DNA of 32,000 nt from Clostridia bacterium (GCA_022790575.1 JAAVXM010000062.1:1-32000); one strand, 5' to 3'. Positions 11,872 through 32,000 are shown, counted from the stretch's first letter. Translations and numbers: made by a program. The notes: generated by a model from the letters alone, not told the origin.

Positions 11872-12591
11872 ATGGAAGAAGTAGTATTAATAACAGGTGC
11901 ATCAAGAGGGATAGGAAGAGAGTTAGCAGACAAATTATCAAAGAAAGGATATAAAATAATAGCAAATTATAACAAGTCAGAAGAACAAGCAAAAAAACTG
12001 AAAGAAGAAAACAAAAATATTGATATATATAAAGCTGATGTATCAAAAAGAGAAGAAGTAAAAAACATGATTAATTATGTAATAAAAGAATATGGAAAAA
12101 TAGATGTATTAATAAACAATGCTGGAATATCTGGAAGTAATATATTTACAGATGTGACAGATATAGAATGGAATAATATAATAAATAACAATTTGTATTC
12201 GACTTTTTGTGTAACACAAGAAGTAGTGAAAAACATGATTAGTAGAAAACAAGGATGTATAATAAATATATCATCTATATGGGGAATGGTAGGGGCGTCA
12301 TGTGAGAGTATATATTCAGTAACAAAGGCAGGAATTGATGCAATGACAAAGTCATTAGCTAAAGAATTGGGACCATCAAATATTAGAGTGAATTCAGTTG
12401 CTCCAGGAATAATTGATACAGACATGAATAGAGACTTAAATGAAGATGATATTGAGAGAATAAAAGAAGAGATTCCACTGGAGAAAATTGGTAAAGTAAA
12501 AGATATATCTAAATGTATAGAGTGGTTAATAGAAGATGATTACACAACAGGCCAAGTTATTTCTATAAATGGTGGTTGGGTAATTATATAA
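11872..12591 (+). CDS. Short-chain dehydrogenase/reductase (3-oxoacyl-ACP reductase FabG-like)
   Basis: TGASRGIG cofactor motif, NNAG, and catalytic S...YSVTK (YxxxK). The ORF track starts at TTG 11866, but ATG 11872 sits 8 nt after GAGGAAAGG and is the more likely start. Confidence 0.9.
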   Translation: MEEVVLITGASRGIGRELADKLSKKGYKIIANYNKSEEQAKKLKEENKNIDIYKADVSKREEVKNMINYVIKEYGKIDVLINNAGISGSNIFTDVTDIEWNNIINNNLYSTFCVTQEVVKNMISRKQGCIINISSIWGMVGASCESIYSVTKAGIDAMTKSLAKELGPSNIRVNSVAPGIIDTDMNRDLNEDDIERIKEEIPLEKIGKVKDISKCIEWLIEDDYTTGQVISINGGWVII

Positions 12592-12622
12592 ATGTGTTAT
12601 GCAAAGATAATATGAAGTAAAC

Positions 12623-12648
12623 AAAAAAAGTGGCAAAGCCACTTTTTT
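12623..12648. terminator. Bidirectional rho-independent terminator between the convergent SDR and CBM-like genes
   Basis: A7-GTGGC-AAA-GCCAC-T6, a GC stem extended by A/T pairing. It overlaps the stop codon of the minus-strand gene. Confidence 0.65.
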
Positions 12649-13117
12649 ATTGTTCATTTGTAGTTTTTCTTTTATAGTTTCCAGAAATTAATTTTGGAAG
12701 ATAAGTTATTATCTTATATACAGCTAATCTGATTTTTTTATTCCATAAATATGTTTTTCTTAATTTCCTTACAGAACCTAAAGAAACAGGTTCATCATCT
12801 AAAACAATTAATTCATTTTGTTGTTTTTCAATAGGAAAAGAATAATTTGTTCCACAATTATTATCCCATTCACCTTTTTCATTGCAGAAACAGAAGTTAA
12901 AGGTATCAAAAGAACCTAATTCAATTTCTGTTTGAAAGCCAAGTTCTGTTTTTTCCATTTTTAAATCATTAAGCTCATCCCAATTATATCCAAATCCATA
13001 ATGAATAAAGACATCTTCTGAAGCATCTTGAAAAAACTGACCTGTATATGAAATTTTAATTTTACTATTTTCTACTAACTTATCTGTATTGAAAAATATG
13101 TTTTTTGTTAATTCCAT
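12647..13117 (-). CDS. Small protein with a CBM25/CBM53-like (starch/glycogen-binding type) domain and a basic C-terminal tail (156 aa)
   Basis: The pattern VFIHYGFGYNW...M......F..EI.L.....FNFCFCNEKGEWDNNCGTNYSF matches the ..hyG..W..../..F.F.....WDNN.G.NY.. signature of these modules as I recall it. Confidence 0.45.
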   Translation of the reverse strand: MELTKNIFFNTDKLVENSKIKISYTGQFFQDASEDVFIHYGFGYNWDELNDLKMEKTELGFQTEIELGSFDTFNFCFCNEKGEWDNNCGTNYSFPIEKQQNELIVLDDEPVSLGSVRKLRKTYLWNKKIRLAVYKIITYLPKLISGNYKRKTTNEQ

Positions 13118-13257: not shown

Positions 13258-13286
13258 TTGTCAAAAAAGAAAAAATATGGTATGAT
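13258..13286 (+). promoter_or_regulatory. Extended -10 promoter of the A1-B1 giant gene operon
   Basis: TTGTCA (13258-13263), a 17-nt spacer, then TGG-TATGAT (-10 at 13281-13286). It has nearly the same architecture and flanks as the promoter at 23890. Confidence 0.55.
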
Positions 13287-13353
13287 AAAATAGAGGTAAA
13301 AAATAAATGGAGGAATAAACATCCAATTAAAATAAATCAAGGAGGTAAATGAA

Positions 13354-16300
13354 ATGGAGAAAACATTTTTCAAAAGAATAATAGCATTACTAACGGTGAT
13401 AGTAATAATGGCAGCAGATTTCGTTATACTAGGTACAAACTTAATAAGTTATGCTACAACATTTGATAGTTTAACAAACAATCCAAATGTTGAGTTTTCT
13501 GCGTATTTTAAAACAGAGGAAGGGACAAGAGTAGACAATATAAGCAAAAGTATCAAAAGCAATGGGATGAAATTATATGCAGAAATAAAAGTAAATAAGG
13601 AAGGGTACTTTAATGGAAGTATAGAATTGCAAGAAAGTAACTTTAAATTGAAAAGTAATGTATTGTCAGACAGGATTGCAAGTATAGAAGGGAACAAAAT
13701 CAATCTAAAACAAATAAATGCAGGAGAGACAGTAGAAATAGAAGTTGATATTGAACCAATAGTAGAAGATAAAATAGCAGTAGACATGATGTCAAAAGAA
13801 TCAACAATAAACCTTGCAGGTCAATATATGGAAACAACATATAAGGGAATAGATATAAAGGCAATAAAAACTGTGAAAGCGAACTTTGAGGTAGATGCAG
13901 AAGCACAAGCAGAAATAGAAACAGAAATAATAACAAACCAAGTACTACCAATAAAAGGAGAAAATAAAAGGATAGTACAACTTATGGTAAAATCAAACAT
14001 GCAAGGAAACCAATATCCAATAAAGCAAACAAATATAGATGTTGAAATCCCTGCTCTAAGTGGAAAAGAGCCAGAAGAAATCAAAGTATTATCATTGGGA
14101 ACAAAAGCAACAAATGGAAAAGAAAGTACAGTAATAGAAAGCTTTGACAAAGAAAATGGGAAACTATTATTAACACTAAAAAATGAACCAAATGAAGAAA
14201 ACAAGATAGAATGGAACAAAAAAGAAAAAGATGAGTTAATAATAACATTTATATATGATGAAATGGTAGAAGCAAATGCGATATCAGTAACAACAAATAC
14301 TGAGATAGAGTTATATAATGCAGAAGAAAAGAAAACAGCAACAGATACAAAAACAATAGAAAATCAAACAGTAAACAAAACAATAACAACACAAATAGAA
14401 AGAGACTCAGAAGAAATATATAAAGGTCAATTATATGTAAATGCTAAAACAGAAGCAAATACAGAAGTAAACTACAAAACAAATACAAAGATTAACATAA
14501 CAAATTCAGACATAGTAGACAATATTGTAGTAAATGAAGGGCCAGATATGTATGTAACACAAGAACTTGCTGAGATAGAAGCAAATACAAGATTTGTTAG
14601 CACAGAAATAAACAAAGAAAAGATGTTAAGTTTATTAGGACAAGATGGAACAATTCAAATAAATGATGGAACAAAAACAATAGAAATATCAAAAGATACA
14701 GAAGCAAATGAGAATGGGAATATTGTAATAAATCATGTTGAAAATGTAAACAGATTAGAAATAACACTTAGCAAGCCAGAAAAAGCAGGAGTACTTGAAA
14801 TAAGTCACAATAAAGCCATTGTAAAAAGTTCATATACAATTGAACAATTAAAAACAATAAGTGGGTTAGCATTAACAAGTACAATAAAAGGAAAATTAGA
14901 AGACAAACAAATAGTAGAAAATACAACAAAAAGTACAGTAGAATTAAAAGAAACAAAGACAAAAGCAGAACTAACAGTAAGCAAAGAAAGTTTATCAACA
15001 GTATCTGCAGAAAATGAAGTTATTTTAGGAGTAAAACTAATAACAAATGGAACACAATATGACTTATACAAAAATCCAAAAATAACAATACAATTACCAG
15101 ACACAGTAGAAGAAGTAACAGCAAATGGAGCTGTAAGCAAATTATATGACAATGAATTTAAAGTAAGAGCAATATATAATAAAGAAACAAGGATAATGGA
15201 AATAACATTAGAAGGAGAACAAACAACATATCCAACAGATGAAGCATTACAAGCATATTTACAATTTAACTTAAATTTAAAACTTAGAAAATTAGCACCA
15301 AGTAAAGTAGACAAAATTGTAATGACATATACAAACGAAAATGCAACACAATATGAAGGTGGAACAACAGAAGCTGGAATAGTTGAAAAAGCAATAAACA
15401 TTACATCTCCAAGTGGGCTAATACCTGTAAATACATTAGAAACATATAAAATAGAAGGAATAGCAGGAATAAGTGCAAATAAACAAGTAGCAAATATAGA
15501 CAGAAATACAGCAGGAGGAACAGACTTAACATACAAAATGGAATTAGCAAACAACACAGGAAATGATGTAAAAAATGTAAAAATATTAGGAACAATACCA
15601 GCAAAAGGAACAATAAAAGTAGGAGCAGATGATATTGAAAATACATTAGAAACAACATTAAAAGCAATAAATGCAGAAGGAGCAACAATATATTATAGCA
15701 ATAATATAAATGCAACAGCAGACCTAAATGACACAAACAATGGATGGAACTCAAACTTAGCAGAAGTTGCAAATGCAAAAGCATATTTAATAGTAGTAGA
15801 AAATATAGCAAAAGATGGAAGATATAATGCGACATATACAGTAACATTACCACAAGAACTAGAATATGACCAAACATCATATGCAGGATATAAAGTATTC
15901 TTCAATGAAGGAGAAAACACAATAGAACAAAAAGAAGAGTCAACATTAATAGGAATATCAACAGGAGAAGAATCAAATAATGGCGAGAGAGTTTCAGCAG
16001 GTTCATCACCTGTAGAAGGAATAAATATAGAAACTAGCTTAACAGCTAAAGTAGGAATGGATGAAATAAAAAATGGAGACACTGTAAAAGCTGGAGAAGT
16101 AATAAGATATACAGTAAGAATAAAAAATACAGGGTCAACACCATACACAAATGTTATAGCAAAAGCAAGTATTCCAGAAGGAACTGTATATGTAGAGCCA
16201 GATAAGGGAAATGCAACAATGGATGATTTATTTGATGAAAATGGTAATCCAATAGAAAATGATGAAGATTTAAACTTTGGATATGTATACTCAGGAGATT

Positions 16301-18324
16301 CATATTATATAGAAAAGCCAGAAATCAAAGAGGTAACAAAAACAATAACAACATTAGAACCAAACAAAGAATATATATTCAGTTATGAAGCAAGAGTAAA
16401 CATGGATATAACAGAAGGTACTCAAACATCAAATAAAGCAACAATAGTATGTAATAACAAAACAATAGAAAGTAATGAAATAAGTACAAAATTAGAAACA
16501 GCAAAAATAAGAGCAACATTAAAGAGTACAACTCCTGAAAATGTAGACAGAGTACCAAACTTAGATGTAGAATATTATTTCTTTATAGAAAACCTTTCTG
16601 AAGAAACAGTAAAAGATTTAAAAGTGGAAGTAATGACAGAAGGATTAAAAATATGGAAAACACTAGGAGAAACAATTGAAATTGTTGAAGATTTTAAAGA
16701 AGATAAAATAGAAAACATAGAAGGAAAGGGTATATATGGTAAAACTCTAGTAGCAAAAATAAATGAGGATGCAAAACAAATACCAGTAGCAGTAAAGATT
16801 ACAGATAAAGATGGAAATGTATATAGGTCAAATGTATTCTCAAATAACATTATAGGAGAAGGTGCAAAAATATCATTAACAACACCAAATAATGGGGGAT
16901 ATGTATCAATAGGAGATGAAATAAGATACAATTTCGCAATTGAGAACATAGGGGGACGCCAATCTGCAGTAGATATTATAGATAATATATCAGAATATTT
17001 AGAAATAGTAGGTATTGAAGTAAATGGAAAAACAGAACTTCAAACATTAGATAGAACAGATAAAGATACATATAAAAGCTCAATATCAAATAACCTAAGA
17101 TATACAGTGCCAGTACAACAAGGTGAGAAAGTTAATGTTACAATAGTAACAAAAGTAAAACAATCAGACAATATGTTTGATGTAAAAACAATAACAAATT
17201 CTGCAAAAGTAAGTATAGGTGGAAATGTATATGACACATCAGGAGAAGTTACACACTTTATAAAAGGAAATTACTTAGAATCAGATAAAAGTATTGTTAG
17301 TGGTGTAGCATGGTTAGATGCAAACACAAATGGACAAAGGGACTTAGAAGAACAAACATTATCAGGAATAAAAGTATTATTATATAATACAATGACAAAT
17401 TCTATAGCAACAGATAAAGATGGAAACAGAGCAGAAACAACAACAAACGAAAATGGAGAATATACATTTAGAAGAATGGAATCAGGACAATATATTGTAC
17501 TATTTGAATTTGATACAACAAAATATGAATTAACAGACTACAAAAAAGAAGGAGTACAAGAAAGTCAAAATTCAAAAGCAATATTAAAATCAATTGTAGT
17601 AGATGGACAAGAAAAACTATATGGTGTAACAGACATAATTAACTTAGCAGAAATAGCAACAAATATTAATATGGGATTAAAAGACAACTATACATATGAT
17701 TTAGAATTACATAAATATATAAGCAGAATAGTAGTACAAAATGATAAAGGAACAAAATCATATGATTATTCAGGAAAAGACTCAACATTCCAAAAAATAG
17801 AAATAAATAGAAAACAATTAAATAATTCAACAGTAATATTAGAATATACAATAAGGGTTAAAAATACAGGAGCTATAGCAGGAAACGTAAATAGTATAGT
17901 AGACTATTTACCAAAAGAAATGAACTTTAACTCAGAACTAAATCCAGATTGGTACTTATCAGGAGAAAGCCTACATACAAAAAGTCTAGCAAATGATAAA
18001 ATACAACCTGGAGAAACAAGAGAAATAAAACTAGTATTAACTAAAGCGATGACAGAAAATTCAACAGGACTGGTAAACAATAGAGCAGAAATAGAAGAAA
18101 GCTTTAATGATTTAGGAAAAGCCGATATAGACTCAGTAGAAAACAACCAAGTAAAAGGTGAAGACGACATGGGTTCTGCAGATGTTATAATAAGTGTAAG
18201 TACAGGTGGAAAAACAATATCATATGCAATAATGATAATAATAAACACAATATTAATAGGATTTGCAATATATTTAATATTCAAAAGAGAAATCAGGGAA
18301 AAACTTATGGAAAGGAGGAAATAA
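13354..18324 (+). CDS. Giant surface protein A1 (1656 aa): signal peptide, about 860 aa of unassigned beta-rich region, DUF11-type repeats, SdrD-B-like domain, C-terminal sorting-like signal
   Basis: Signal peptide ending ISYA/TT. DUF11-like segments include GDTVKAGEVIRYTVRIKNTGSTPYTNV..IPEGTVYV, GDEIRYNFAIENIG and ILEYTIRVKNTGAIAGNVNSIVDYLP...NRAEIEES...DIDS..N...GEDD..SADVII. SdrD-B-like segment: SGVAWLDANTNGQRD...TTTNENGEYTF. C-terminal SVSTG, then a hydrophobic stretch and a KR-rich tail. Confidence 0.9.
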   Translation: MEKTFFKRIIALLTVIVIMAADFVILGTNLISYATTFDSLTNNPNVEFSAYFKTEEGTRVDNISKSIKSNGMKLYAEIKVNKEGYFNGSIELQESNFKLKSNVLSDRIASIEGNKINLKQINAGETVEIEVDIEPIVEDKIAVDMMSKESTINLAGQYMETTYKGIDIKAIKTVKANFEVDAEAQAEIETEIITNQVLPIKGENKRIVQLMVKSNMQGNQYPIKQTNIDVEIPALSGKEPEEIKVLSLGTKATNGKESTVIESFDKENGKLLLTLKNEPNEENKIEWNKKEKDELIITFIYDEMVEANAISVTTNTEIELYNAEEKKTATDTKTIENQTVNKTITTQIERDSEEIYKGQLYVNAKTEANTEVNYKTNTKINITNSDIVDNIVVNEGPDMYVTQELAEIEANTRFVSTEINKEKMLSLLGQDGTIQINDGTKTIEISKDTEANENGNIVINHVENVNRLEITLSKPEKAGVLEISHNKAIVKSSYTIEQLKTISGLALTSTIKGKLEDKQIVENTTKSTVELKETKTKAELTVSKESLSTVSAENEVILGVKLITNGTQYDLYKNPKITIQLPDTVEEVTANGAVSKLYDNEFKVRAIYNKETRIMEITLEGEQTTYPTDEALQAYLQFNLNLKLRKLAPSKVDKIVMTYTNENATQYEGGTTEAGIVEKAINITSPSGLIPVNTLETYKIEGIAGISANKQVANIDRNTAGGTDLTYKMELANNTGNDVKNVKILGTIPAKGTIKVGADDIENTLETTLKAINAEGATIYYSNNINATADLNDTNNGWNSNLAEVANAKAYLIVVENIAKDGRYNATYTVTLPQELEYDQTSYAGYKVFFNEGENTIEQKEESTLIGISTGEESNNGERVSAGSSPVEGINIETSLTAKVGMDEIKNGDTVKAGEVIRYTVRIKNTGSTPYTNVIAKASIPEGTVYVEPDKGNATMDDLFDENGNPIENDEDLNFGYVYSGDSYYIEKPEIKEVTKTITTLEPNKEYIFSYEARVNMDITEGTQTSNKATIVCNNKTIESNEISTKLETAKIRATLKSTTPENVDRVPNLDVEYYFFIENLSEETVKDLKVEVMTEGLKIWKTLGETIEIVEDFKEDKIENIEGKGIYGKTLVAKINEDAKQIPVAVKITDKDGNVYRSNVFSNNIIGEGAKISLTTPNNGGYVSIGDEIRYNFAIENIGGRQSAVDIIDNISEYLEIVGIEVNGKTELQTLDRTDKDTYKSSISNNLRYTVPVQQGEKVNVTIVTKVKQSDNMFDVKTITNSAKVSIGGNVYDTSGEVTHFIKGNYLESDKSIVSGVAWLDANTNGQRDLEEQTLSGIKVLLYNTMTNSIATDKDGNRAETTTNENGEYTFRRMESGQYIVLFEFDTTKYELTDYKKEGVQESQNSKAILKSIVVDGQEKLYGVTDIINLAEIATNINMGLKDNYTYDLELHKYISRIVVQNDKGTKSYDYSGKDSTFQKIEINRKQLNNSTVILEYTIRVKNTGAIAGNVNSIVDYLPKEMNFNSELNPDWYLSGESLHTKSLANDKIQPGETREIKLVLTKAMTENSTGLVNNRAEIEESFNDLGKADIDSVENNQVKGEDDMGSADVIISVSTGGKTISYAIMIIINTILIGFAIYLIFKREIREKLMERRK
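18193..18321 (+). other. C-terminal cell-wall sorting-like signal of A1 (SVSTG motif, TM segment, basic tail)
   Basis: SVSTG (18193-18207), followed by GKTISYAIMIIINTILIGFAIYLIF and KREIREKLMERRK. The motif is conserved in A2 (30870-30884). Confidence 0.5.
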
Positions 18325-18327
18325 ACT

Positions 18328-21300
18328 ATGAAAAAAAGTATAATACCAAAATTGTTATTAATATTATTAATAGGAATTTTAATGGTAATATTAAAACCTA
18401 ATACATGTTCAGCTGCAGACATAATTTTTCAAGACTTTATTACTCAAGTGAAAAATAATCCAGATTATGTTCCTAATAAAAATATGATAACAAGTATGGG
18501 ACAATATGCATTAGAAGGTACAAATTATGTTTATTGTATTGCTCATGCAAATATGCTTTATAATAGCAGGTATGATTATCAGCTTTATGCAGCATATAGA
18601 ATAGAAGGAGATGTATGTGTTGATTTATATAATCCAAGCAATACAACAAAAAACTTTGATAATGCAATAATGGCAGGGATATTATCAAGTGGTTCTTTAG
18701 GATATGGACATTACAAAAGTGGTTATTGGAATACACAAACAGGAGTATATCGTCATTATAATAAATGGGTTAATGCAAATCCATCATTTGGACTAAGCAA
18801 TTGGGGGCAAGGAGTATTTGACAAAGGTGGAGGAGCTTATCGTAATTGGTATAATAATATAGTAGCAAATGCTGCAAATGGAGCATATACAAATGTGAGG
18901 GTAAATTTATTTATATTCAAAAACATAACTAAAGGAGCTTCATCACTTCAAAATCTAATGATAGCAGTACCATCAGAAGTTAAAGACACAGGAATTGAAA
19001 TAGTAAAAGTAAGTTCAACAGAAAAAGACCAAAATGGAAACAAAAAACCATTAGCAGATGTAGATTTTGTAATTAGAAGAGTAAGAGATGGAAAATATGT
19101 TTCTCAAGCCAAAAAGGTAAATGATGCTGCAAATGAATATGTAGTTACAAACTTTACTGATAATGGATTAGAATATGAAGAAAATGATGACAGAGGTACT
19201 GATGTAATTGACTTCAAATTAAATGAAGCATTGAAATTTACAACAAATGCAAATGGTAAAGTTAGAATAACAGGTTTAGAATGTGATACAGAATATGAAA
19301 TAATAGAATGTTCAGTAAAAAATATAGAATATGATAATAACAAAAATATAGGTAGAAAGTGGAAAATTACAACACAGGACAAAAAAGTACTACCAATAGA
19401 ATGTGAAAATATACGAGAAATAAAACCAGGACTAAAAATACTAAAAACATATAATCATGGAACATTGCTAACAGATGTAAAATTTACAGTAGCGAAACTA
19501 ACAGGTAAAAATGGAGTAATAGAAAAATATGTATCAGAAGCGGTAGAAATAGACTATGAAGATAGTGGTCTATATAGACAAAGAAGATATAGCAAAAACA
19601 AAAATGATGCATTTGTATTTAAGCTAACACCAGATGGATGGTTTCAAGTTATAGACTTAGAGCCAGGATGGTATAGAGTAACAGAGGTGGAAAACAACAA
19701 CCCTGGACTAGAAGGACAAGTAGGTAGAACAGAAGATTATCAAGTAGTAAAAGATGTAGTAGGAACATGGGAATTCAACAACACAGGACCATTAGTAACA
19801 CAATTAAGAATAAAGAAAGTTGACGCAGAAAATCCAAAGAAACCATTAGCAGGAGCAAGATTCACAATACAAATACAAAAACAAGTAAAAGTACATGAGA
19901 ATTTACGTTACTGTGATGGTATAGACTGCGAGGTTGACAGCCACTGGTCAGTAAGATGGGTAAGCACAGGAGAATATATCACAGGATATGGAAAATATAA
20001 TGGAGAATATAAAATAACAACAGGAACAACAGCAGTAGAGCTTATAACAGATAGTAGTGGATATATAAAATTAATAGGTACAAATTTTGCAGACTTGCTT
20101 AAAGCACAATCAGGAGAATATGCAAGAAGATTTGTAGTAAAAGAAACTGGAGCGCCAAGTGGATACATAATATCAAGTGGAGAACAATACATAACAGAAG
20201 ATAACTTTAAAGATGGGGATATCAATATAATTACAATTAAGAATAAACCAGATAACCCACCAGATGAACATAGAGGTTCAGTAACAATAAAAGGTTCAGT
20301 ATGGGAAGATGAAGCATTAGGAAAAGAACATAAAGGAAATAGTGTAAAAGATGTTCAAGAAAGAGGGCTTGAGGGAATAGTTGTATATTGGAAAGACCAA
20401 AATGGAAATATTTTGGATAAAACAATTACAGACTCAAGTGGAAACTATGAAATGACATACACAATAAGATGGACAAATCACACATATAGTTTAGATGAAG
20501 CTTCAAAATCAAGAATTAATAATTCATATGTAGAGTTTAAATATAACGGCTTAAAATATACAACAGTACAACATGCAGGAACAGGAGACAATACATCAAG
20601 GTCAATAGAAAGTGTTAATGAAAGAAACAACTTAAATGCAACATTTGGAGAAGTAAGAAATGAAGGTGTTATGAAAAATGGACAACTAACATCGATAACA
20701 TCAAACAGACTAAACTATAGAACAGAAGGAAATAAAGCAACATCAATACCAGTTGAAACAGATGTTACAAATAATACATTAAAAGAATTTCATGTAACAG
20801 CATCAACAAAAGATGTAGCGAAAAATCTTCTTTCAGATGGAGGATATCTACATCATAGAAACAATAAATCTAGTGTGTGTATAAGAGAAACATCAACAGA
20901 AGATGGAGGAGTAATTCATCATTATGGAAACAGAGAAACAAGCTGGGAAATCTGGAACATGAACTTAGGATTAGTAAGAAGAGAACAACCAGATGCAACA
21001 GTGGTATCAGATTTATACAAAGTAGTAGTAGAAATGAAAGGACAAAGATATACATACTACTATAACTCAAGAGGAATACAAACACCAACAGGAGTATATG
21101 ACTATAAAACAAAATTCACAGGGAAATATAATGAAACATATACAAGACCAATAAATCCAGCAGATATAGAATACATAAAAGACCCAGAAAATGCAAATAA
21201 TGCAGAAGATTTGAAAGTATATGTAGAATATCATATAAGAGCAAAAAATGAATCTGAAACATTATTGATGAAAATAGGTGAAATAGGAAACTATTATGAC

Positions 21301-23706: not shown

Positions 23707-23726
23707 AAATTACTTAAAATAAAAAA

Positions 23727-23758
23727 AGTTCACATACATTAAGTATGTGGACTTTTTT
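23727..23758 (+). terminator. Rho-independent terminator after B1
   Basis: An 11-bp stem pairs AGTTCACATAC with GTATGTGGACT (one G.U pair) around the 5-nt loop ATTAA, followed by a T6 run. Confidence 0.8.
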
Positions 23759-23889
23759 GTATTATTACAAAAAATAACAGTAATGGCACAAAAAGGACAA
23801 GCAATTTACAAATAATGTAAGAATAATTAAGGAAGTAATAAAAAAACATAAAAAACATATATATATAATATAAAAATTTAAAAGAAAAA

Positions 23890-23918
23890 TTGTCAAAAAA
23901 ATAAATATGTGGTATGAT
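23890..23918 (+). promoter_or_regulatory. Extended -10 promoter of the vanW-A2-B2 operon
   Basis: TTGTCA (23890-23895), a 17-nt spacer, then TGG-TATGAT (-10 at 23913-23918). The flanking sequence is similar to the promoter at 13258. Confidence 0.55.
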
Positions 23919-23944
23919 ATAATTAGAGGTCAAAGGAGAGAGAA

Positions 23945-25993
23945 ATGAAAGAAGAAAATAAGGAAATAGAAGAACAAAATGGAGCTGTAAAGCTATTAGA
24001 AAAGACGGAAGAAAAGGAGAAACAAGAAGAAAAAGAGACAAAAACTACACAGAATCCAGAAAATACGACCCAAAATAAGAGAAAAAGGGGAAAAAAGGCT
24101 AGAAAAAGAAAAAAAGCAATGAACAATAAAGAAAATGCAGAAAAATTATCAGATGTTCAGGAAGCAATTGGCAAAAAGGAGGAAGAACCAAAAGAACAGA
24201 AACAGTTAGAAACAAAAAAAGAAATCCAACCTAAAAAAAAGTTAGAAGTCAAAAAAGAAAGCCAGCCTAAAAAAGAATTAGAAGCCAAAAAAGAAAGTCA
24301 TCTTAAAAAAGCATCAGAGGAACAAAAAGAAAAACCAAAAAAAGAAACTAAACAAAAAGAAGAGCAAAAGGAAAAAGATGAAGATATAGAAAAGCAAGAT
24401 AAGCCTGAAAAAGAAGCTTCAAAAGAAGAAACAAAACAGGCATCCCCAAAAAACCGCTTAAAAACAACAATAATTCTAATAGTAACAGGAATAATAATAG
24501 TAATAATAGCAATAATGTCAACAATATTTGCAGTAATAAATATAAACAATCCCAAAATAATAAAAAAAATATCAATTGGAGGGATTGATGTATCAAATAT
24601 GACCAAGGAAGAGGCAAAACAAGTACTCGAGGAAAAATATGCTACAAAACTGCAAAACAAAATATACTTAAAACATAATGAATTTGAATCAACAATTACA
24701 TATCAAGCATTAGAAGTAAAATACAAAATAGAAGAAGCAGTAGAACAAGCATATAGTATAGGAAGATGTGGAAATGTGTTCAAAAATAATGCAGAAATAA
24801 TAAAAACTTGGACAAAAGGAAGAGAAATAGAAGTAAATATAGAGATAGACAAAGATATGATAAGTCAAGTCTCTCAAAATATAAACAATAGTATAAAAGA
24901 AGCAGTAGTTCAACCAAGCTATTATATAGAAGGAGAAAAACTAATAATAACATCAGGAAAAGAAGGCTCAAAGGTAGAAGAACAACAATTGTCAGATAGA
25001 ATATATGAAATATTAAAATCAGATGCAGAAGTAGAAAGCAATATAGAAATACCAATTATAATAGCAAAACCAGAAAAAATAGACATAGAAAAAATTCACC
25101 AAGAAGTATATAAAAAAGTACAAGATGCCTATTACACAAAAAATCCATTCACAATATACCCAGAGCAAAATGGGATAGACTTTGATGTTCAAAATGCACA
25201 ACAAATAATATCAGAAGAAAAGGCAGAATATGAAATACCACTAATAATTACGAAACCTACAAAAACAGTTAAGAACATTGGAACAGAAGCGTTTCCAGAT
25301 TTATTAGCTACATTTTCAACAAAATATGTAGCAAGTAATGTAAATAGAACAACAAATTTACGTTTAGCAGCAGGAAAAATAAATGGGACAGTATTATTGC
25401 CAAATGAAGAGTTTTCGTACAACAAAATAGTTGGGGAAAGGTCAATACAAGCAGGTTATAGAGAAGCGGCAATATACTCATCAGGAGAAGTTGTAAATGG
25501 ATTAGGAGGAGGAATTTGCCAAATATCATCAACATTATATGATGCAGTAGTAATGGCAAATTTACAAGTAACACAAAGGAGAAATCATCAATTTGTGACA
25601 TCATATTTACCAGCAGGTAAAGATGCAACGGTAGTATGGGGTTCTCAAGACTTTAGATTTAAAAACACAAGGAGCTATCCTGTAAGAATAGAAGCAACAG
25701 TTGGAGGAGGAATTGCAAAAATTTCTATATGGGGAGTAAAAGAGGATGTTGAATACGATATATCAATAGAAACTAGAAAAATAGCAACAATAGCATATAC
25801 AACACAATATATTCAAGACCCTAGTTTACCAGCTGGTCAAGAAGTAGTAATGCAAGCAGGAAGCAATGGTAGAAAGGTAGAAGCATACAAAGTTGTAAGA
25901 CTAAATGGTCAAGTGGTTTCAACAACACTACTATCAAAAGATACATATAATGCAATGAAAAGAGTAGTAAGAATTGGAACAGGAGGCCAGTAA
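23945..25993 (+). CDS. VanW-domain protein with a K/E-rich disordered N-terminus, a TM anchor and a C-terminal G5 domain (682 aa)
   Basis: TM segment TTIILIVTGIIIVIIAIMSTIFAVI. VanW core ...LPNEEFSYNKIVGERSIQAGYREAAIYSSGEVVNGLGGGICQISSTLYDAV...VVWGSQDFRFKNT, with Cys525 at 25517-25519. G5-like C-terminus QEVVMQAGSNGRKVEAYKVVRLNGQVVSTTLLSKDTYNAMKRVVRIGT. Confidence 0.9.
   Translation: MKEENKEIEEQNGAVKLLEKTEEKEKQEEKETKTTQNPENTTQNKRKRGKKARKRKKAMNNKENAEKLSDVQEAIGKKEEEPKEQKQLETKKEIQPKKKLEVKKESQPKKELEAKKESHLKKASEEQKEKPKKETKQKEEQKEKDEDIEKQDKPEKEASKEETKQASPKNRLKTTIILIVTGIIIVIIAIMSTIFAVININNPKIIKKISIGGIDVSNMTKEEAKQVLEEKYATKLQNKIYLKHNEFESTITYQALEVKYKIEEAVEQAYSIGRCGNVFKNNAEIIKTWTKGREIEVNIEIDKDMISQVSQNINNSIKEAVVQPSYYIEGEKLIITSGKEGSKVEEQQLSDRIYEILKSDAEVESNIEIPIIIAKPEKIDIEKIHQEVYKKVQDAYYTKNPFTIYPEQNGIDFDVQNAQQIISEEKAEYEIPLIITKPTKTVKNIGTEAFPDLLATFSTKYVASNVNRTTNLRLAAGKINGTVLLPNEEFSYNKIVGERSIQAGYREAAIYSSGEVVNGLGGGICQISSTLYDAVVMANLQVTQRRNHQFVTSYLPAGKDATVVWGSQDFRFKNTRSYPVRIEATVGGGIAKISIWGVKEDVEYDISIETRKIATIAYTTQYIQDPSLPAGQEVVMQAGSNGRKVEAYKVVRLNGQVVSTTLLSKDTYNAMKRVVRIGTGGQ
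24206..24313 (+). repeat. Three tandem 36-nt coding repeats inside the K/E-rich region of the VanW-domain gene
   Basis: The units 24206-24241, 24242-24277 and 24278-24313 each read ttagaaNNNaaaaaagaaa...ctaaaaaa..., encoding LE(T/V/A)KKE(I/S)(Q/H)(P/L)KK(K/E/A). Confidence 0.8.
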
Positions 25994-26015
25994 AATACAA
26001 AGGAGGTAGAATCAA

Positions 26016-29000
26016 ATGGAAAGAACAATAATCAGAAAAATAGTAGCATTAATAACAGTAATAATGGTTATGGCAGCTGATTTTGTTATACTAGGGTCAA
26101 ATTTAATAAGTTATGCTACAACACAGGACAGTTTGACAAATAATGAAAATGTAGAATTTTCTGCATACTTTAAGACATACGAAGGAACAAAAGTAGATAA
26201 TATAAGTAAAAGTATAAAAAGTTCAGAGATGAAAATGTATGCAGAAATAAAAATAAAGAATGAAGGATACTTTAATGGAAACATAGAAATATTAGAAAGT
26301 AACTTCAAAATCAAAAATGACATATTATCAGACAGTATATCTAGTATAGAAGGAAACAAAATTAATTTAAAGCAAATAAATGCAGGAAATACAGTAGAAA
26401 TAGAAATTGGAATAGAACCAATAACAGATGACAGAATATCATCAGATATGATGTCAAAAGATACAACAATAAAATTATCAGGTCAATATATGGAAGAAAC
26501 ATATGAAGGAGTAGACATAGAAGCAACAAAAACAATAAGAGCAAACTTTGAGATAGAACAAGGTGTTGAAGCAGAAGTTGGAACAGAAATAATAACAAAT
26601 GAGATATTGCCAATAAGAGGAGCAAACAAGAGAATAATACAACTTGCAATAAAATCAAACATACAAGAAAATCAATACCCAATAAAACAAACAAAAATAG
26701 AAGTTGAATTTCCAAAATTAAGTGAAAAAGAACCAGAAGAAATCAAAGTGCTATCATTAGGAACAAAAGCAACAAATGGAAAAGGAAGTTCAGAAATAGA
26801 AGATTTTGAAAGAAAAGAAGGAAAACTTTTATTAACAATAAAAAATGAGCCAGATGAAGAAAACAAAATAGAATGGAATAAAAAAGAAAGAGATGGATTA
26901 ATTGTAACACTAATATATGATGAAGCAGTAGAAGCAAATACAATTAGTGTGACAACAAATACAGAGATAGAATTATATAATACACAAGAGAAAAAGACAG
27001 CAACAGATACACAAACAATCGAAAATAAGACAATGAATAAAACATTAATAACACAAACAGGAAAAGATTCAGGAGAAATATACAAAGGACAATTATATGT
27101 AAATTCAAAAACAGGAACAGACACAGAAGTTAATTATAAAACAAAAACAAAGGCAAATATAACAAATTCAGACATAGTAGACAAAGTAATATTAAATGAA
27201 GGACCAGATGCATTTATAACACAAGATGAAAAAGAGGTAAGTGCAAATACAAGATTTATAAGTACAGAAATAAACAAAGAAAAAATGCTTGAAATATTAG
27301 GCGAAAGTGGAACAATTCAAATAAATGATGGAACAAATATTACAAGTATTTCAAAACAAACAGAAACAGATGAAAATGGAAATATTATAATAGAATATGC
27401 TCAAACAGTTGCACAATTAGAAATAACACTAAGTAAACCACAAAAAGCAGGGATATTTGAAATAGCACATAATAAAGCAATAACAAAAAGTTCATATAAA
27501 TTTGAACAGTTGAAAACAATAAAACAATTAGAATTAATAAGTACAATAAGAGGGTTAATAGGTGAAACGCCAGTAGTAGAAAATACAACAAAAACACCAA
27601 TAGAATTAAAGGAAACAGAGACAAAAGCAGAATTAACAGTAGATAGAGAAAGTCTATCAACAATTTCAACAGAAAATGAAGTAATATTAGGAATAAAACT
27701 AATAACAAATGGAGTACAATATGACTTATATAAAAATCCAAAAATAACAATACAATTGCCAGATACAGTAGAAGAAGTAACATCAAATGGAGCAGTAAGC
27801 AAACTATATGATGATGAATTTAAAATAAAAGCAATATATAATAAAGAAACAAAGAGAATGGAAATCTCATTAGAAGGAGAACAGACATCATATCCAACAG
27901 ATGAAGCTTTACAAGCATATTTACAATTTAATTTGAATCTAAAATTAAGGAAATTAGCGCCAAGTAAAGTAGACAAAATTGTAATGACATATACAAACGA
28001 AAATGCAAAACAATATGCAGGAGGTACAACAGAGGCAGGTGTTGTAGAAAAAGAAATAAATATAAGTTCTCCAAGTGGACTAATTCCTGTAAATAGTATA
28101 GAAGGATATAATGTTGAAGGAATAACAGGAATAAGTGCAAATAAACAAGTAGCAAACATAGATAGAAATACATCAGGTGGAGCAGACATTACATATAAAA
28201 TTGAATTAGCAAATAATACAGATAAAAATGTAAATAATATAAGGATTTTAGGAACAATCCCAACAAAAGGAACAGTTAAATTAGGAACAGAAGAAATTGA
28301 AAATACATTAGAAACAGTGTTAAAATCAGTAAATGCACAAGGAGCAACAGTATATTATAGTAGTAATGCAAATGCAACAGCAGATTTAAACAATTCAAAT
28401 AATGGTTGGAATTCAAATTTACAAGAAGTTGGAACTGCAAAATCATATTTAATTGTAGTAGAAAATATAGAAAGAGATGGAAGATATAATGCAACATATA
28501 CAGTAACATTATCAAAAGAACTAGAATATAATCAAACATCATATGCAGGATATCAAGTGTTTTTCAATGAAGAAGGAGATGTGGCAGAGAAAAAAGAATC
28601 ATCAACTTTGATAGGGATTTCAACAGGAAATGGACCAATAAAAACTGCCCCAGTAGCAACAGAGGAAGACCCAGTAAATATAGAGACAAGCTTGACTGCT
28701 AAAGTGGGAATGGATGAATTAAATGATGGTGATACAGTAAAAGCAGGAGAGGTTGTAAGATATACTTTAAGAGTGAAAAACAATGGTACAAAAACTCTTA
28801 AAAATATTTCAGCGAAGGCTGGTGTACCAGAAGGAACTGTATGGGTTGAGCCAGATTATGGAGATTTAACAGCAGATGATTTATATGGTGATGGAAAAGA
28901 CATGACAGAAGGCTTGACTGAAGAAGAATTAGAAGATTTAATTAAGAGACTAGGTTTTGTGTATTCAGGAAATGCATATTACCTAGAAAAAACAGACATA

Positions 29001-30983
29001 AAAGAAACTACTCAAACAATAGAAAGTTTGGAACCAGACCAAGAAGTTACATTTAGTTATGAAGTAAGAGTTAATATGGATATTACGAATGGTACTCAAG
29101 TTACAAATAAAGCAACTATAACATGTAATAAGACAACAATAGAAAGCAATGAATTAACAGCGAAACTATCAGAAGCAAAATTCAGAGCATCTATGAAAGT
29201 GACAAATGATTTAGCTATTGTACCACTTCCAGGAGCAGATAGAAGATATTATTTCTTTATAGAAAATGAATCTAATGAAACATTAAAAAATATAAATGCT
29301 GAAATAGTATCAGAAGGACTTGACTTTATATTTTCAAATGATGAAGATTATAATGATGCTGAGATTAAAGATGGAAAAATTAAAATTAAAGATATAGCGC
29401 CAAAAAGTAAATTTGGCTATGAAATTATAGCTAGAATACAGAGAGACACAGAACATATAGGAATGTCAGTAAAACTAACAGATGAAAATGGACAAGTATA
29501 CAGGTCAAATGTATATGCAGATGATGTAGGAGAAGAAGGTGCGACAATATCATTATCAACACCAAATGAAGGTGGACAAGTATCAATTGGAGAAGAAATA
29601 AAATATAACTTTACAGTTGAAAATACAAGTTCTGTTCTTAAAATGGTTGACATTGAAGATGAAGTACCAGAATATTTAGAAGTAGTAAGAATTGAAGTTA
29701 ATGGTAGAACTGAAATGCAAACACAAGAGATAACAAATACAGATACATATAAAAGAAAAATTGAAAACCATGTAAGATATGGAGTAGAATTACAACCAAA
29801 AAAGAAAGCGATTATAACAATAGTAGCAAGAGTTAAAGAAGAAGGAAATGAGTTTAGTGTAAAAACGATAACTAATTCTGGTAAAGTTTTAATTGGTGGA
29901 GAAGAATATGGAACATCAGAAGAAGTATCACATGTAATTAAAGGAAAGTATTTAGAAGAAGATAAAAGTGTAATTACAGGTTTAGCATGGTTTGACGGAA
30001 ATGGAAATGGAGCAAAAGACACTGGAGAACCAATGTTGCCAGGAATAAAAGTATTATTATATGATATTACCTCAAATAGTATAGCAAAAGATAAAGAAGG
30101 AAACAGAGCAGAAACAACAACAGATGCAAATGGAGAATATATATTTAAGAAAATTGAACCTGGAAAGTATTTAGTATTATTTGATTTTGATAAGGTAAAA
30201 TATGAAGTGACAGGATATAAAATGCAAGGAGTACCAGAAAGCAGAAATTCAAATGCAATATTAAAATCAATCACAATAGAAGGAAAAGAAGAAAAATATG
30301 GAGTAACAGACACAATAAACTTAGGAGATATAGTTGCTAATATTAATATAGGATTAAAAGACAATTATATATATGACTTAGAATTACACAAATACATAAG
30401 TAAAATAATAGTACAAAATCCAAAAGAGACAAAGACATATGATTATTCTGGGAAAGATTCAACATTCCAAAAAGTTGAAATAAATAGAAAACAATTAAAT
30501 AATTCAACAGTAATATTAGAATATACAATAAGAGTTAAAAATACAGGAATATTAGCAGGAAATGTAAATAGTATAGTAGATTATTTACCAGAAGGATTAA
30601 ACTTTAGTTCAGAATTAAACCCTGATTGGTATTTATCAGATAAAAATTTACATACAAGAAGTTTAGCAAATGATAAGATACAACCTGGTGAAACAAGAGA
30701 ATTAAAATTAATATTAACAAAGAAAATGACAGAAAATTCAACAGGATTAGTAAACAATAGAGCAGAAATAGAAGAAAGTTTTAATGAATTAGGAAAGAAA
30801 GATATAGATTCAACAGAAAATAATCAAGCACAAGGTGAAGATGATTTGGGTTCTGCAGATGTAATTATAAGTGTAAGTACAGGTATAAAAACAGTAACAT
30901 ACACAATAATAATGATAGCAAATATAACACTAATAGCATGTGCAATCATCCTAATATTTAAGAAAAATAAGGACAATATTTAG
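26016..30983 (+). CDS. Giant surface protein A2 (1655 aa), paralog of A1
   Basis: It is colinear with A1 over its full length. By eye, identity is about three quarters overall, higher at both ends and much lower in the centre. It has the same signal peptide cleavage context (ISYA/TT) and the same SVSTG C-terminal signal. AGGAGG SD lies 9 nt before the ATG. Confidence 0.9.
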   Translation: MERTIIRKIVALITVIMVMAADFVILGSNLISYATTQDSLTNNENVEFSAYFKTYEGTKVDNISKSIKSSEMKMYAEIKIKNEGYFNGNIEILESNFKIKNDILSDSISSIEGNKINLKQINAGNTVEIEIGIEPITDDRISSDMMSKDTTIKLSGQYMEETYEGVDIEATKTIRANFEIEQGVEAEVGTEIITNEILPIRGANKRIIQLAIKSNIQENQYPIKQTKIEVEFPKLSEKEPEEIKVLSLGTKATNGKGSSEIEDFERKEGKLLLTIKNEPDEENKIEWNKKERDGLIVTLIYDEAVEANTISVTTNTEIELYNTQEKKTATDTQTIENKTMNKTLITQTGKDSGEIYKGQLYVNSKTGTDTEVNYKTKTKANITNSDIVDKVILNEGPDAFITQDEKEVSANTRFISTEINKEKMLEILGESGTIQINDGTNITSISKQTETDENGNIIIEYAQTVAQLEITLSKPQKAGIFEIAHNKAITKSSYKFEQLKTIKQLELISTIRGLIGETPVVENTTKTPIELKETETKAELTVDRESLSTISTENEVILGIKLITNGVQYDLYKNPKITIQLPDTVEEVTSNGAVSKLYDDEFKIKAIYNKETKRMEISLEGEQTSYPTDEALQAYLQFNLNLKLRKLAPSKVDKIVMTYTNENAKQYAGGTTEAGVVEKEINISSPSGLIPVNSIEGYNVEGITGISANKQVANIDRNTSGGADITYKIELANNTDKNVNNIRILGTIPTKGTVKLGTEEIENTLETVLKSVNAQGATVYYSSNANATADLNNSNNGWNSNLQEVGTAKSYLIVVENIERDGRYNATYTVTLSKELEYNQTSYAGYQVFFNEEGDVAEKKESSTLIGISTGNGPIKTAPVATEEDPVNIETSLTAKVGMDELNDGDTVKAGEVVRYTLRVKNNGTKTLKNISAKAGVPEGTVWVEPDYGDLTADDLYGDGKDMTEGLTEEELEDLIKRLGFVYSGNAYYLEKTDIKETTQTIESLEPDQEVTFSYEVRVNMDITNGTQVTNKATITCNKTTIESNELTAKLSEAKFRASMKVTNDLAIVPLPGADRRYYFFIENESNETLKNINAEIVSEGLDFIFSNDEDYNDAEIKDGKIKIKDIAPKSKFGYEIIARIQRDTEHIGMSVKLTDENGQVYRSNVYADDVGEEGATISLSTPNEGGQVSIGEEIKYNFTVENTSSVLKMVDIEDEVPEYLEVVRIEVNGRTEMQTQEITNTDTYKRKIENHVRYGVELQPKKKAIITIVARVKEEGNEFSVKTITNSGKVLIGGEEYGTSEEVSHVIKGKYLEEDKSVITGLAWFDGNGNGAKDTGEPMLPGIKVLLYDITSNSIAKDKEGNRAETTTDANGEYIFKKIEPGKYLVLFDFDKVKYEVTGYKMQGVPESRNSNAILKSITIEGKEEKYGVTDTINLGDIVANINIGLKDNYIYDLELHKYISKIIVQNPKETKTYDYSGKDSTFQKVEINRKQLNNSTVILEYTIRVKNTGILAGNVNSIVDYLPEGLNFSSELNPDWYLSDKNLHTRSLANDKIQPGETRELKLILTKKMTENSTGLVNNRAEIEESFNELGKKDIDSTENNQAQGEDDLGSADVIISVSTGIKTVTYTIIMIANITLIACAIILIFKKNKDNI
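30870..30980 (+). other. C-terminal sorting-like signal of A2 (SVSTG, TM segment, basic tail)
   Basis: SVSTG (30870-30884), then IKTVTYTIIMIANITLIACAIILIF and KKNKDNI. Confidence 0.5.
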
Positions 30984-31001
30984 GGAAAGGAGGGTAATGC
31001 T

Positions 31002-32000
31002 ATGAAGAAAAATATAATAATAAAATTATTGATAATATTATTTATAAGTATATTAATAATATTATTAAAATCTGTAACATGTTTGGCAGTAGATTATGGG
31101 TCGCCTGCGGCTTTTGCAAATGCAGTTAGAGCAAATCCAGATCTTGGTTATAAAGGTACAACAATGTACATGAGCCAATATGCGTTAAATAGTAATAAGA
31201 ATACATATTGTATTGAACATACAAATACGATGTATTCATCAACACAAAGTTTAGTTTATGCATTTAGACTAGAAGGACAGAAATGTACAAATTTATTTGA
31301 TACAAGTCAGTCATATGAATTCTACTCAAATGTTGCACTTGCAGGAATGTTGTCAAATGGAAGCCAAACTTATGGATACTATCCAGTATATTCAAATACA
31401 CAATCTTATTTGTACATGTATTTAGACACATGGGTACAATGCCATAATGAAAGAATGGGTGGCTCAGGATATATTGCTAATTTTAAAGGACAAGGAGGAG
31501 GAGGAAACTGGACCCATATATTTAAACACAAACAACGATATCTTCAGATTCTTGCTGAAGCAGAGCAGGGAGTATATGATAACAAAGTAATAGATATGTA
31601 TCTTTTTAGGTCAACTAGAGCAGTTCAAACAATATTAGTCGCTGTAGATAGAGGTGATGCTCCAAGAGAGACAGCATTGGAAATAACAAAGGTAAGTGAA
31701 GGAGATAATAAACCGCTACAAGGTGTAGAATTCTTAATACAAAGGGGAGATGGAGCATATATTAAAGATGCTAAAGAAGTTAAACCAGGAGTATATAAAC
31801 CAGTTGGATATGCAGAAGTAGGATATGAGGGATTTGACGAGTTCATAGGAGAAGGTCAGGATTCATTTAAACAAACAGAGGCATATAAATTCAAAACAGA
31901 TGCAAATGGTAAATTAAAGATAGTTGGGTTAGAGGACTCAGTAGAATATACTGCAATAGAATATGCAACAAATATACAAGAATTTGATACGAGCCAAAAT
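31002..32000 (+). CDS. Giant surface adhesin B2, the N-terminal 333 codons only (runs off the window); divergent paralog of B1
   Basis: It is absent from the ORF track because no stop is reached. My own translation is MKKNIIIKLLIILFISILIILLKSVTCLAVDYGSP...NTYCIEHTN...SNTQSYLYMYL...ALEITKVSEGDNKPLQGVEFLIQRGDG.... A GGAGGG SD lies 7 nt before the ATG. The frame is open for all 999 nt. Confidence 0.85.
   Translation, partial: MKKNIIIKLLIILFISILIILLKSVTCLAVDYGSPAAFANAVRANPDLGYKGTTMYMSQYALNSNKNTYCIEHTNTMYSSTQSLVYAFRLEGQKCTNLFDTSQSYEFYSNVALAGMLSNGSQTYGYYPVYSNTQSYLYMYLDTWVQCHNERMGGSGYIANFKGQGGGGNWTHIFKHKQRYLQILAEAEQGVYDNKVIDMYLFRSTRAVQTILVAVDRGDAPRETALEITKVSEGDNKPLQGVEFLIQRGDGAYIKDAKEVKPGVYKPVGYAEVGYEGFDEFIGEGQDSFKQTEAYKFKTDANGKLKIVGLEDSVEYTAIEYATNIQEFDTSQN

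Follow-up and report, generated by a model that had tools for sequence, protein, structure and literature searches.

A conserved two-gene module for giant, putatively surface-displayed stalk and adhesin-like proteins, duplicated in tandem in an uncultured Clostridia bacterium

The FCT pilus locus of Streptococcus pyogenes has the gene order cpa-sipA-fctA-srtC-fctB and encodes a thioester tip adhesin. The thioester domains (TEDs) of characterised proteins of this kind bind ligand amines covalently. A TED has a beta-barrel and a three-helix subdomain, and its Cys-Gln thioester bond is autocatalytic and amine-reactive, with a mass change of −17 Da; the Gln is located in a phi-Q-zeta-phi-phi strand close to the domain end. 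TED signature motifs were defined by Walden et al. 2015 (PMC4450167); a helix motif, TQxx-phi-W (TQxA[IV]W), is common but not universal among them. Long stalks are a further element of fibrillar adhesins, and recent work describes one stalk family, CLIPPER/DUF11, as an isopeptide domain of the CnaA-like kind. Here we describe a 32,000-nucleotide (nt) stretch of DNA from Clostridia bacterium (GCA_022790575.1 JAAVXM010000062.1:1-32000, hereafter the window), which carries two copies of a gene pair, A and B, encoding giant proteins with predicted secretion and anchor signals. The reading that we favour, with somewhat better than even confidence, is that A and B are a co-expressed giant fibrillar surface pair, consisting of a conserved headless stalk (A) and a TIE-type adhesin (B) with a hypervariable thioester-type tip.

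From 13.2 kb to the window end, calling of open reading frames (ORFs) gave five long ORFs on the + strand and no other sizeable ones: A1 (13354–18324; 1656 amino acids, aa), B1 (18328–23706; 1792 aa), a gene for a VanW protein (vanW, 23945–25993; 682 aa), A2 (26016–30983; 1655 aa), which alignment identifies as a paralogue of A1, and B2 (31002–32000), which starts at the ATG at 31002 and runs past the window end, so that its N-terminal 333 codons are available. The A and B proteins are unrelated to each other in sequence. These coordinates agree with an earlier interpretation made from the window alone (the sequence-only reading), which had proposed two colinear A-B copies lying 12,662 nt apart from start to start (26016 − 13354). 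It had also placed each B start 3–18 nt after the A stop, and the gaps are 3 nt for A1-B1 and 18 nt for A2-B2; likewise, the Shine-Dalgarno sequence of B1, AGGAGG (18313–18318, + strand), does coincide with the terminal Arg-Arg codons of A1 (Arg1654-Arg1655), 9 nt before the B1 ATG. A three-codon mini-ORF, ATG-CTA-TGA (30997–31005), is situated between the A2 stop and B2, where it overlaps the B2 ATG; it may be irrelevant or may be involved in coupling.

By consensus match, a promoter-like site, P1 (13258–13286, + strand), with the structure TTGTCA-17-TATGAT and an extended TG, precedes A1, and a second one, P2 (23890–23918, + strand), identical in hexamers, spacing and extended TG, precedes vanW-A2-B2. 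Both sit in a common 37-nt block (second copy at 23885–23922), P1 being a copy of P2. An intrinsic-terminator-like hairpin with a 16-bp stem and a T run (23722–23758, + strand) closes the A1-B1 unit. The positions of P1, P2 and the terminator thus give unit 1 as promoter-A1-B1-terminator and unit 2 as promoter-vanW-A2-B2; A, B and vanW are the only genes of these units, and vanW is the difference between them. Tight operon coupling of this sort indicates co-expression only, and neither a single A-B fibre nor a fixed stoichiometry.

A scan of one genome per species detected relatives of A in at least 316 genomes. The best 78 loci, each from a distinct species-level genome, were analysed by calling the ORFs of the locus and classifying them with phmmer; B homologues were collected from loci located through A. 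All 78 come from uncultured gut Clostridia of human or animal origin, including Clostridium sp. CAG:343, and names such as this one would place the lineage in the GTDB order TANB77. Three loci (L018, L051 and L054) have typical A-B genes in bins labelled Candidatus Gastranaerophilales or Bacilli, labels that probably reflect binning or taxonomy noise and no lateral transfer. In the 78 loci, a B homologue follows A wherever the contig extends far enough, except in L001, where a Peptidase_M23 gene comes after A, and L049, where the neighbour encodes a 497-aa protein without a recognisable family; two apparent exceptions, L028 and L069, proved to be B-like proteins with SdrD_B that are cut by contig ends. 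Over 84 A-B pairs, the median spacing of the two genes is 18.5 nt, and 82 of the pairs fall in the range −44 to +29 nt. The fixed pairing proposed in the sequence-only reading therefore holds beyond the window, and the contrary expectation, that A and B homologues normally occur unlinked, is refuted.

Two conserved contexts were recognised. In the close clade the order is dnaI-dnaB-(four small or TraG-like genes)-...-SDR-CBM53-vanW-A-B, and in the distant clade it is M23-mecA-radC-mreBCD-pbp2-minC-x-x-A-B, followed by a third A-like giant gene (about 1800–1900 aa) or by spoIIE. Locus L010 lies on a complete chromosome of 1.55 Mb; complete genomes of the lineage include OV788638.1 (1.55 Mb). 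The A-B locus is thus chromosomal, with synteny kept in at least 78 species-level genomes, and the best-supported reading is that the pair is a vertically inherited core operon of the lineage that is occasionally duplicated. A third giant gene, A', is often found about 300 nt past A-B; its product has 1600–1900 aa, scores 230–480 bits against A1 and carries an S-I-x-T-G anchor (e.g. L010 19004–24781, L035 19223–24631, L041, L045, L048, L060 and many more), and the window ends before such a site. A published 'conserved pilin of TANB77' (PMC11680825) was considered and rejected as a counterpart of A or B, as it belongs to a Tad-type pilus cluster with pilins of 143–236 aa at a separate locus.

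A1 is recorded at NCBI as a 'hypothetical protein' of a metagenome-assembled genome (MAG), on a contig of 48,421 bp, and the full-length A family has over 660 members, each about 1600 aa long. From the N-terminus, A1 consists of a signal/transmembrane helix, about seven immunoglobulin-like (Ig-like) domains, CLIPPER/DUF11-type domains, an SdrD_B domain (residues 1318–1409), a last CLIPPER domain and a sorting-like C-terminus. The Pfam families found in A, i.e. SdrD_B, DUF11/CLIPPER, DUF7927 and DUF7507, are confined to the C-terminal half, in keeping with the earlier description of this part as DUF11 and SdrD-B-like. Residues 1–860 matched no Pfam or NCBIfam family, and a sequence search with A1 for relatives of solved structure came back empty. 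The earlier view of these residues as nameless is thus correct as far as families go, but they do not constitute a novel module. The AlphaFold2 model of A1 residues 1–880, built from a 52-sequence alignment, has a mean predicted local distance difference test score (pLDDT) of 87.6 and shows an N-terminal helix followed by about seven all-beta domains; the chain of Ig-like or macroglobulin (MG)-like beta-sandwiches spans residues ~37–870 (13462–15963, + strand). In a Foldseek comparison of this model with the PDB, the best match was to the Ig-like domains of PrgB (8beg, E 5e-19), and integrin alpha legs and the MG domains of C3/alpha-2-macroglobulin were also matched. The match with 8beg, at a template-modelling (TM) score of 0.16–0.20 and 10% identity, amounts to a generic multi-domain beta-sandwich likeness, low TM-scores being expected of flexible multi-domain chains. 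The model indicates that the N-terminal 860 residues of A are an ordinary Ig-like stalk with no new fold. This N-terminal half is the most conserved part of A.

B1 begins with a signal peptide and a hypervariable TED-like head; its stalk is made of SpaA/CnaB-type and SdrD_B domains, its C-terminal two thirds are conserved, and it ends in a T-P-P-T-G signal. Pfam families found in B are SpaA, SdrD_B and CarboxypepD_reg, and the SpaA domain of B1 (residues 492–639) bears the E-box-like FVVKETGAPSGY. B proteins vary in length from about 1300 to 2000 aa and have a large conserved non-repetitive C-terminal region; between species, the C-terminal two thirds are 36–46% identical and the first ~300 residues 24–34%. 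Searches with B sequences gave few relatives: an exhaustive phmmer search with B1 residues 25–225 against 1.84 billion representative proteins yielded three weak ones only, word-index searches with a single B sequence or a 41-sequence profile returned almost only generic SdrD/SpaA proteins, and a sequence search with B1 for relatives of solved structure was empty. The B head is hypervariable and fast-evolving. In the sequence-only reading, B had been described as a thioester-like head on CnaB-type stalk domains; the stalk is confirmed by the SpaA and SdrD_B matches, but the head of B1 has no Pfam or NCBIfam match, Pfam TED included, and is recognised by motifs.

The evidence for a putative thioester domain in B1 (residues ~28–215; 18409–18972, + strand) consists of motifs and predicted secondary structure. 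It contains Cys70 in VYCIAH, Gln137 in NTQTGVY and Gln208 in SLQNLMIAV, with TYCIEH, NTQSYLY and AVQTILVAV as the corresponding sequences of B2, and the three motifs stand in the TED order, [YFL]C-phi-zeta, TQxx-phi-W and phi-Q-zeta-phi-phi. Among 84 aligned B heads, the Cys is present in 83, in the context [YF]C[VIML][EQ]H, and a conserved Trp in 78. About 65 residues past the Cys is the sequence xQxA[ILV][WY], with Q in 54, A in 54 and W/Y in 75 heads. The third motif, phi-Q-zeta-phi-phi (LQNLM in B1, VQTIL in B2), is found in three of the four closest heads, and its alignment column has Q in merely 26 of the 84 since the region aligns poorly. An ordered C..T..Q triple occurs in 37/84 heads as against 1/1680 shuffled heads. 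The strings YCIDH and TQIAVW are likewise found in proteins bearing Pfam TED, which itself matches 6 of the 84 heads weakly (best E 6e-4) and is the sole non-stalk family matched by several heads. In a model of the B1 head, the Cys is in a predicted strand (model residues 45–48), NTQTGVY in a helix (112–127) and LQNLM in a strand. Judging from the motifs, the tip of B is probably thioester-forming.

Both proteins end in a sorting-like signal. That of A1 (18193–18321, + strand), defined by alignment, has the acidic GEDDMGSADVIIS and V-S-T-G followed by a hydrophobic helix and a basic tail, and E1603, D1605, D1610, T1617 and G1618 are invariant. A has S-I-[KRS]-T-G, and the wider motif [SG]-[IVL]-[KRSQ]-T-G is found in 96 of 97 A/A' proteins, 29–43 residues before the C-terminus; the acidic sequence GE[DN]D.G.AD, which is conserved, precedes it, and a hydrophobic helix and basic tail come after it. 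The B1 signal (23596–23703, + strand) consists of T-P-P-T-G (residues 1757–1761), a hydrophobic helix and RKKVI; T-P-[PSNA]-T-G is present in 67 of 69 B proteins, 30–39 residues from the end and again followed by a helix and basic tail. SrtB of Clostridioides difficile cleaves (S/P)PxTG between T and G, and the T-P-x-T-G of B resembles this motif and is a variant of LPXTG.

In the mechanism that we propose, A and B would be co-transcribed, translationally coupled giant fibrillar proteins on the cell surface of uncultured small-genome gut Clostridia. A would be the conserved partner, with a Sec signal, about seven Ig-like domains and CLIPPER/DUF11-type (isopeptide-type) and SdrD-B domains, presumably held in the membrane or wall by S-I-x-T-G, the transmembrane helix and the basic tail. 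B would be the variable partner, presenting a fast-evolving head with thioester hallmarks on a long SpaA/CnaB and SdrD-B stalk and ending in T-P-x-T-G, a type of signal that SrtB-like sortases of Clostridioides cleave. The operon, chromosomal and vertically inherited, would be led in the closest clade by the gene for a VanW L,D-transpeptidase, and tandem duplication of A-B with its promoter, followed by divergence, would have provided the cell with two forms of the fibre pair that differ in their heads. The analysis establishes the gene anatomy, the conserved pairing, the synteny, how the A N-terminus folds, the motifs and how old the duplication is; from these we infer surface display, thioester chemistry, sortase anchoring and an adhesive role, and also that the duplication was selected for diversification.

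Several results weigh against this interpretation. First, A has no recognisable adhesive head, its N-terminus folding as an Ig-like stalk by AlphaFold2 and Foldseek, so that the term 'adhesin' may not fit A; of the features of fibrillar adhesins, A has stalk and anchor with no adhesive domain found, and B has head, stalk and anchor. Second, the anchor of A lacks the proline of known sortase motifs and recalls NVQTG, which was left uncleaved by C. difficile SrtB in vitro. Third, no sortase was found in the window or in the 78 loci (up to 10 kb of flank per side) by phmmer with two reference sequences, SrtA and SrtB, and by a scan for TLxTC-type candidates. Fourth, tests of the fold of the B head did not confirm a TED: i) the AlphaFold2 model of the B1 head, built from 5 sequences only, has a pLDDT of 55.8, with a beta/helices/beta order as in the TED description, ii) Foldseek found nothing significant for this model, the pneumococcal TED 5a0n ranking 11th with E 2.2, iii) a B-head profile gave no match among PDB sequences, iv) hhalign of B heads with 6 TED proteins aligned just the TQxAIW helix, at 12% probability, and v) a small TED hidden Markov model performed no better on B heads than on shuffled controls. 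We therefore label B 'thioester-type by motif, fold unconfirmed'. Finally, A is near-universal, syntenic and confined to a single locus, which fits a core envelope structure equally well as an accessory adhesin.

The last point leads to the proposal that A, perhaps with B, is such a core structure, e.g. an S-layer-like coat, a cell-shape fibril or a spore/exosporium appendage, and no host or ligand adhesin. A is conserved over its full length, the genes occupy fixed sites by mreBCD, pbp2, minC, the VanW gene and spoIIE, and small genomes (1.55 Mb in L010) nevertheless retain at least ~10 kb for the pair. However, the neighbourhood is weak evidence, being unlike between the two clades; Pfam detected none of the domains that anchor S-layers, such as SLH or CWB2; CLIPPER, SdrD_B and SpaA belong to the stalk repertoire of fibrillar adhesins; and the B head is hypervariable, with a ratio of nonsynonymous to synonymous substitution rates (dN/dS) of ~0.6 and adhesin-type thioester motifs. 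We regard a core envelope role without ligand binding as unlikely.

A different arrangement of the same parts would make A and B a two-component covalent fibre, in which B is cut at T-P-x-T|G by a housekeeping sortase that links it to a lysine of A, itself held by its S-I-x-T-G/transmembrane anchor. The product would be a minimal 'pilus' composed of a single stalk and a single tip adhesin, with neither pilin sortase nor backbone. It would account for the adjacency and translational coupling seen in 82/84 pairs, for the two distinct xxxTG signals, conserved to an equal degree, as would be expected if the proteins had two fates, and for the presence of a head on B and none on A, and there is a precedent for TED-bearing tip adhesins on a shaft (Cpa). 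On the other hand, A and B each have a complete tripartite anchor, no class C sortase lies within 10 kb in the 78 loci, the coupling indicates co-expression only, and the YPK pilin motif is missing (no [IVL][YFT]PK in A1, A2 or B1). Pfam likewise detected no sortase family or small pilin among the window proteins; together with the missing base pilin, these results agree with the earlier statement that the locus is not a standard sortase-pilus operon. We regard the covalent fibre as unlikely, and no more probable is the broader version in which B is grafted onto A, or docked on its Ig-like half, by way of a sortase encoded elsewhere or, in the closest clade, the operon VanW. If such a minimal fibre existed, it would be a pilus-like heterodimeric adhesin without pilin sortase or polymerising backbone, spread across an uncultured gut order, and the tandem duplication would supply interchangeable tip/stalk sets.

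As to the duplication, A1 and A2 are 68% identical in amino acid sequence across 1654 aligned residues, end to end, and 78% identical in DNA sequence. Synonymous (dS) and nonsynonymous (dN) divergences are ~0.54 and ~0.21, and dN/dS is 0.38 overall and 0.55 for residues 840–1430. The N-termini of B1 and B2 are homologous, with 34% identity over the available 330 residues, and their heads have dS ~1.0 and dN ~0.6. Identity between A1 and A2 is uneven, from 87–90% near residues 540–660 (14974–15333) to 37% at residues 1074–1132 (16573–16749), where dN/dS peaks; gene conversion within the N-terminal half may be the cause, or diversifying selection on the middle of the protein. Since the A copies differ by 22% of nucleotides and 32% of residues, the duplication is old. 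An assembly artefact, the one argument for which is that the window comes from a metagenome-assembled contig, can practically be dismissed: beside the divergence of the A copies and their dS, the B heads are only 34% identical, the two units differ in gene content, and similarly diverged tandem pairs exist in independent MAGs (L013, L015, L056, L071, L007, L017 and L020).

Close-clade loci normally have one vanW-A-B unit, and the window carries an extra promoter-A1-B1 upstream of it; the ancestral unit in the relatives is promoter-vanW-A-B. Tandem A-B-A-B or A-B-A arrangements were also found in L007, L013, L015, L017, L020, L056, L065 and L071, and, as the A copies are mutual closest relatives in most of these loci, the module has been duplicated repeatedly and independently. 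The claim that A-B is duplicated as a unit is accordingly extended to relatives, with the correction that the window does not hold a pure A-B tandem, its units differing by vanW. This gene, previously seen as a spacer, belongs to the canonical unit of close relatives.

In the VanW protein, an N-terminal tail rich in K/E and a transmembrane helix precede PG_binding_4 (250–360), VanW (467–596) and G5 (613–679) domains; the VanW match (162 bits) covers profile positions 1–130 of 130 in Pfam, with a Cys in GGGICQ and a His and an Asp downstream in the sequence. Its low-complexity, cytoplasmic N-terminal extension of ~180 aa (23945–24480), which includes a 36-nt tandem repeat of about 4 copies (24200–24346), is 80–100 aa longer than in the L002 and L004 orthologues. 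In C. difficile, Ldt4 is a VanW-type L,D-transpeptidase that forms 3-3 peptidoglycan cross-links (PMC11348318), and VanW proteins, present in ~70% of Bacillota, are general cross-linking enzymes. The window protein shares with Ldt4 the transmembrane helix-PG4-VanW-G5 architecture and a full-length VanW domain, and differs from it in that its gene is co-operonic with those of two giant surface proteins and that its disordered region is N-terminal and cytoplasmic. By domain content and position, the window gene appears to encode an L,D-transpeptidase-like protein and to be the lead gene of the ancestral vanW-A-B operon. In each of the 19 close-clade loci with enough upstream sequence (L002, L004 and 17 others), it lies 17–65 nt (typically ~20–30) 5' of A and is oriented like A; it is co-operonic with A-B in the close clade only.

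We found no description in the literature of a VanW enzyme tied to a surface-protein operon. Could this enzyme be a dedicated anchoring factor that joins A and/or B to peptidoglycan in place of a sortase, much as YkuD-type enzymes do with Braun lipoprotein? The constant position of vanW, the Ldt4 architecture with its Cys in GGGICQ and the lack of a sortase in the neighbourhood are compatible with this, and L,D-transpeptidases are able to attach proteins to peptidoglycan (PMC12274547). However, the distant clade has A-B without a nearby vanW, the extra A1-B1 copy came without a vanW, the widespread VanW proteins are general cross-linkers, and xxxTG with a transmembrane helix and basic tail is a classic sortase-type signal and no acceptor for an L,D-transpeptidase. 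A dedicated anchoring role is thus conceivable and not required by the data, and we consider it very unlikely.

Upstream of the modules, the window encodes GyrA-like, DnaI-like and DnaB_2-like proteins and has weak type IV secretion system (T4SS) matches at 8832–10814, namely TraG/VirD4-like and TrbC/VirB2-like ones. The latter belong to a cluster of four genes on the − strand (7602–10814) that adjoins dnaB_2/dnaI and encodes proteins of 94, 290, 104 and 547 aa, of which the 104-aa protein has a sub-threshold match to the TrbC/VirB2 pilin and the 547-aa protein weak matches to the TraG/VirD4 coupling protein. The cluster is also present in L002 (2674–5829), L006, L010, L011, L016, L020, L060, L067 and L081. 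Set among housekeeping genes, it resembles a T4SS-like module that has been domesticated or is a remnant. Between the TraG-like and SDR genes are three consecutive tRNA genes (11472–11746), followed at 11866–13117 by genes for an SDR-family oxidoreductase (+ strand) and a 156-aa protein with a CBM53/CBM25-like starch-binding module (− strand), both kept just 5' of vanW-A-B in the close clade (L002 6790–8016, L004 2320–3539). The first 2900 nt of the window (1–2900), 5' of the gyrA-like gene, have a GC content of 19–21% and short AT-rich tandem repeats; they contain a 225-aa ORF (1270–1947) without a family match and no cluster of DnaA boxes above chance.

Weak T4SS matches close to an A protein whose top structural match is the Ig-like domains of PrgB raise the idea that a conjugative plasmid or an integrative and conjugative element (ICE) carries the pair as cargo, i.e. 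as a mating-aggregation adhesin like PrgB or the thioester adhesin of pLS20; conjugation in Bacillus subtilis is reported to require a class II TED adhesin (PMC8092201). This is extremely improbable, because the neighbourhood, including the four T4SS-like genes, is syntenic with gyrA, dnaB/dnaI, tRNAs and the SDR gene in the chromosomes of many related species, a second conserved context exists beside mreBCD, and L010 sits in a 1.55-Mb chromosome. A plasmid or ICE origin was rejected also by megablast against plasmids, which gave a distant gyrA match only and no relevant plasmid DNA.

The lineage consists of abundant, never-cultured gut Clostridia with small genomes. An operon that is conserved and takes up ~10–20 kb of a ~1.5-Mb genome is an obvious candidate for its main surface-contact organ. 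A-B also offers strain-level markers and possible immune targets, and its fixed pairing, together with an operonic VanW and a pair of unusual sorting signals, suggests testable hypotheses on non-canonical anchoring of surface proteins in Clostridia. If A and B were merely independent adhesins sharing an operon, the analysis would annotate more than 600 'hypothetical proteins' and reveal no new biology.

Each element of the A-B module is of a kind already known: the stalks are Ig-like, CLIPPER, SdrD_B and SpaA, the heads TED-like and the signals sortase-type. We found no description in the literature of their combination in an obligate two-gene module present in hundreds of species, with two sorting motifs, an operonic VanW and recurrent duplication. 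Compared with the TIE proteins, which are Gram-positive adhesins with thioester, isopeptide and ester domains (e.g. SfbI, FbaB, CpTIE/Cpe0147 and Cpa; PMC4450167), the B head has no significant match to a solved TED and that of B1 none to Pfam TED, the sorting motif of B is T-P-x-T-G instead of LPXTG, and B is ~1300–2000 aa long, with a big conserved C-terminal region, and is preceded by an unrelated giant gene, A. The fibrillar adhesins with CLIPPER (DUF11) or SdrD-B stalks (Monzon & Bateman 2022, PMC9210967; PMC12617251) are similar to A and B in stalk families, length, secretion and C-terminal anchor, and differ from A in that A is headless, has an Ig-like N-terminal half and carries the proline-less S-I-[KRS]-T-G after the acidic GE[DN]D.G.AD. 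The PrgB or antigen I/II-type stalk (8beg) is the best structural match of A residues 1–880; unlike PrgB, A is chromosomal, not plasmid-borne, and has no polymer-adhesin domain. The FCT pilus locus differs from A-B in having a pilin sortase, a small backbone pilin, the YPK motif and a base pilin, and its proteins are unlike A and B, each of which exceeds 1300 aa and has a complete anchor signal of its own; what the two loci have in common is an operon that encodes a TED-type, tip-like protein together with a shaft-like one that is headless.

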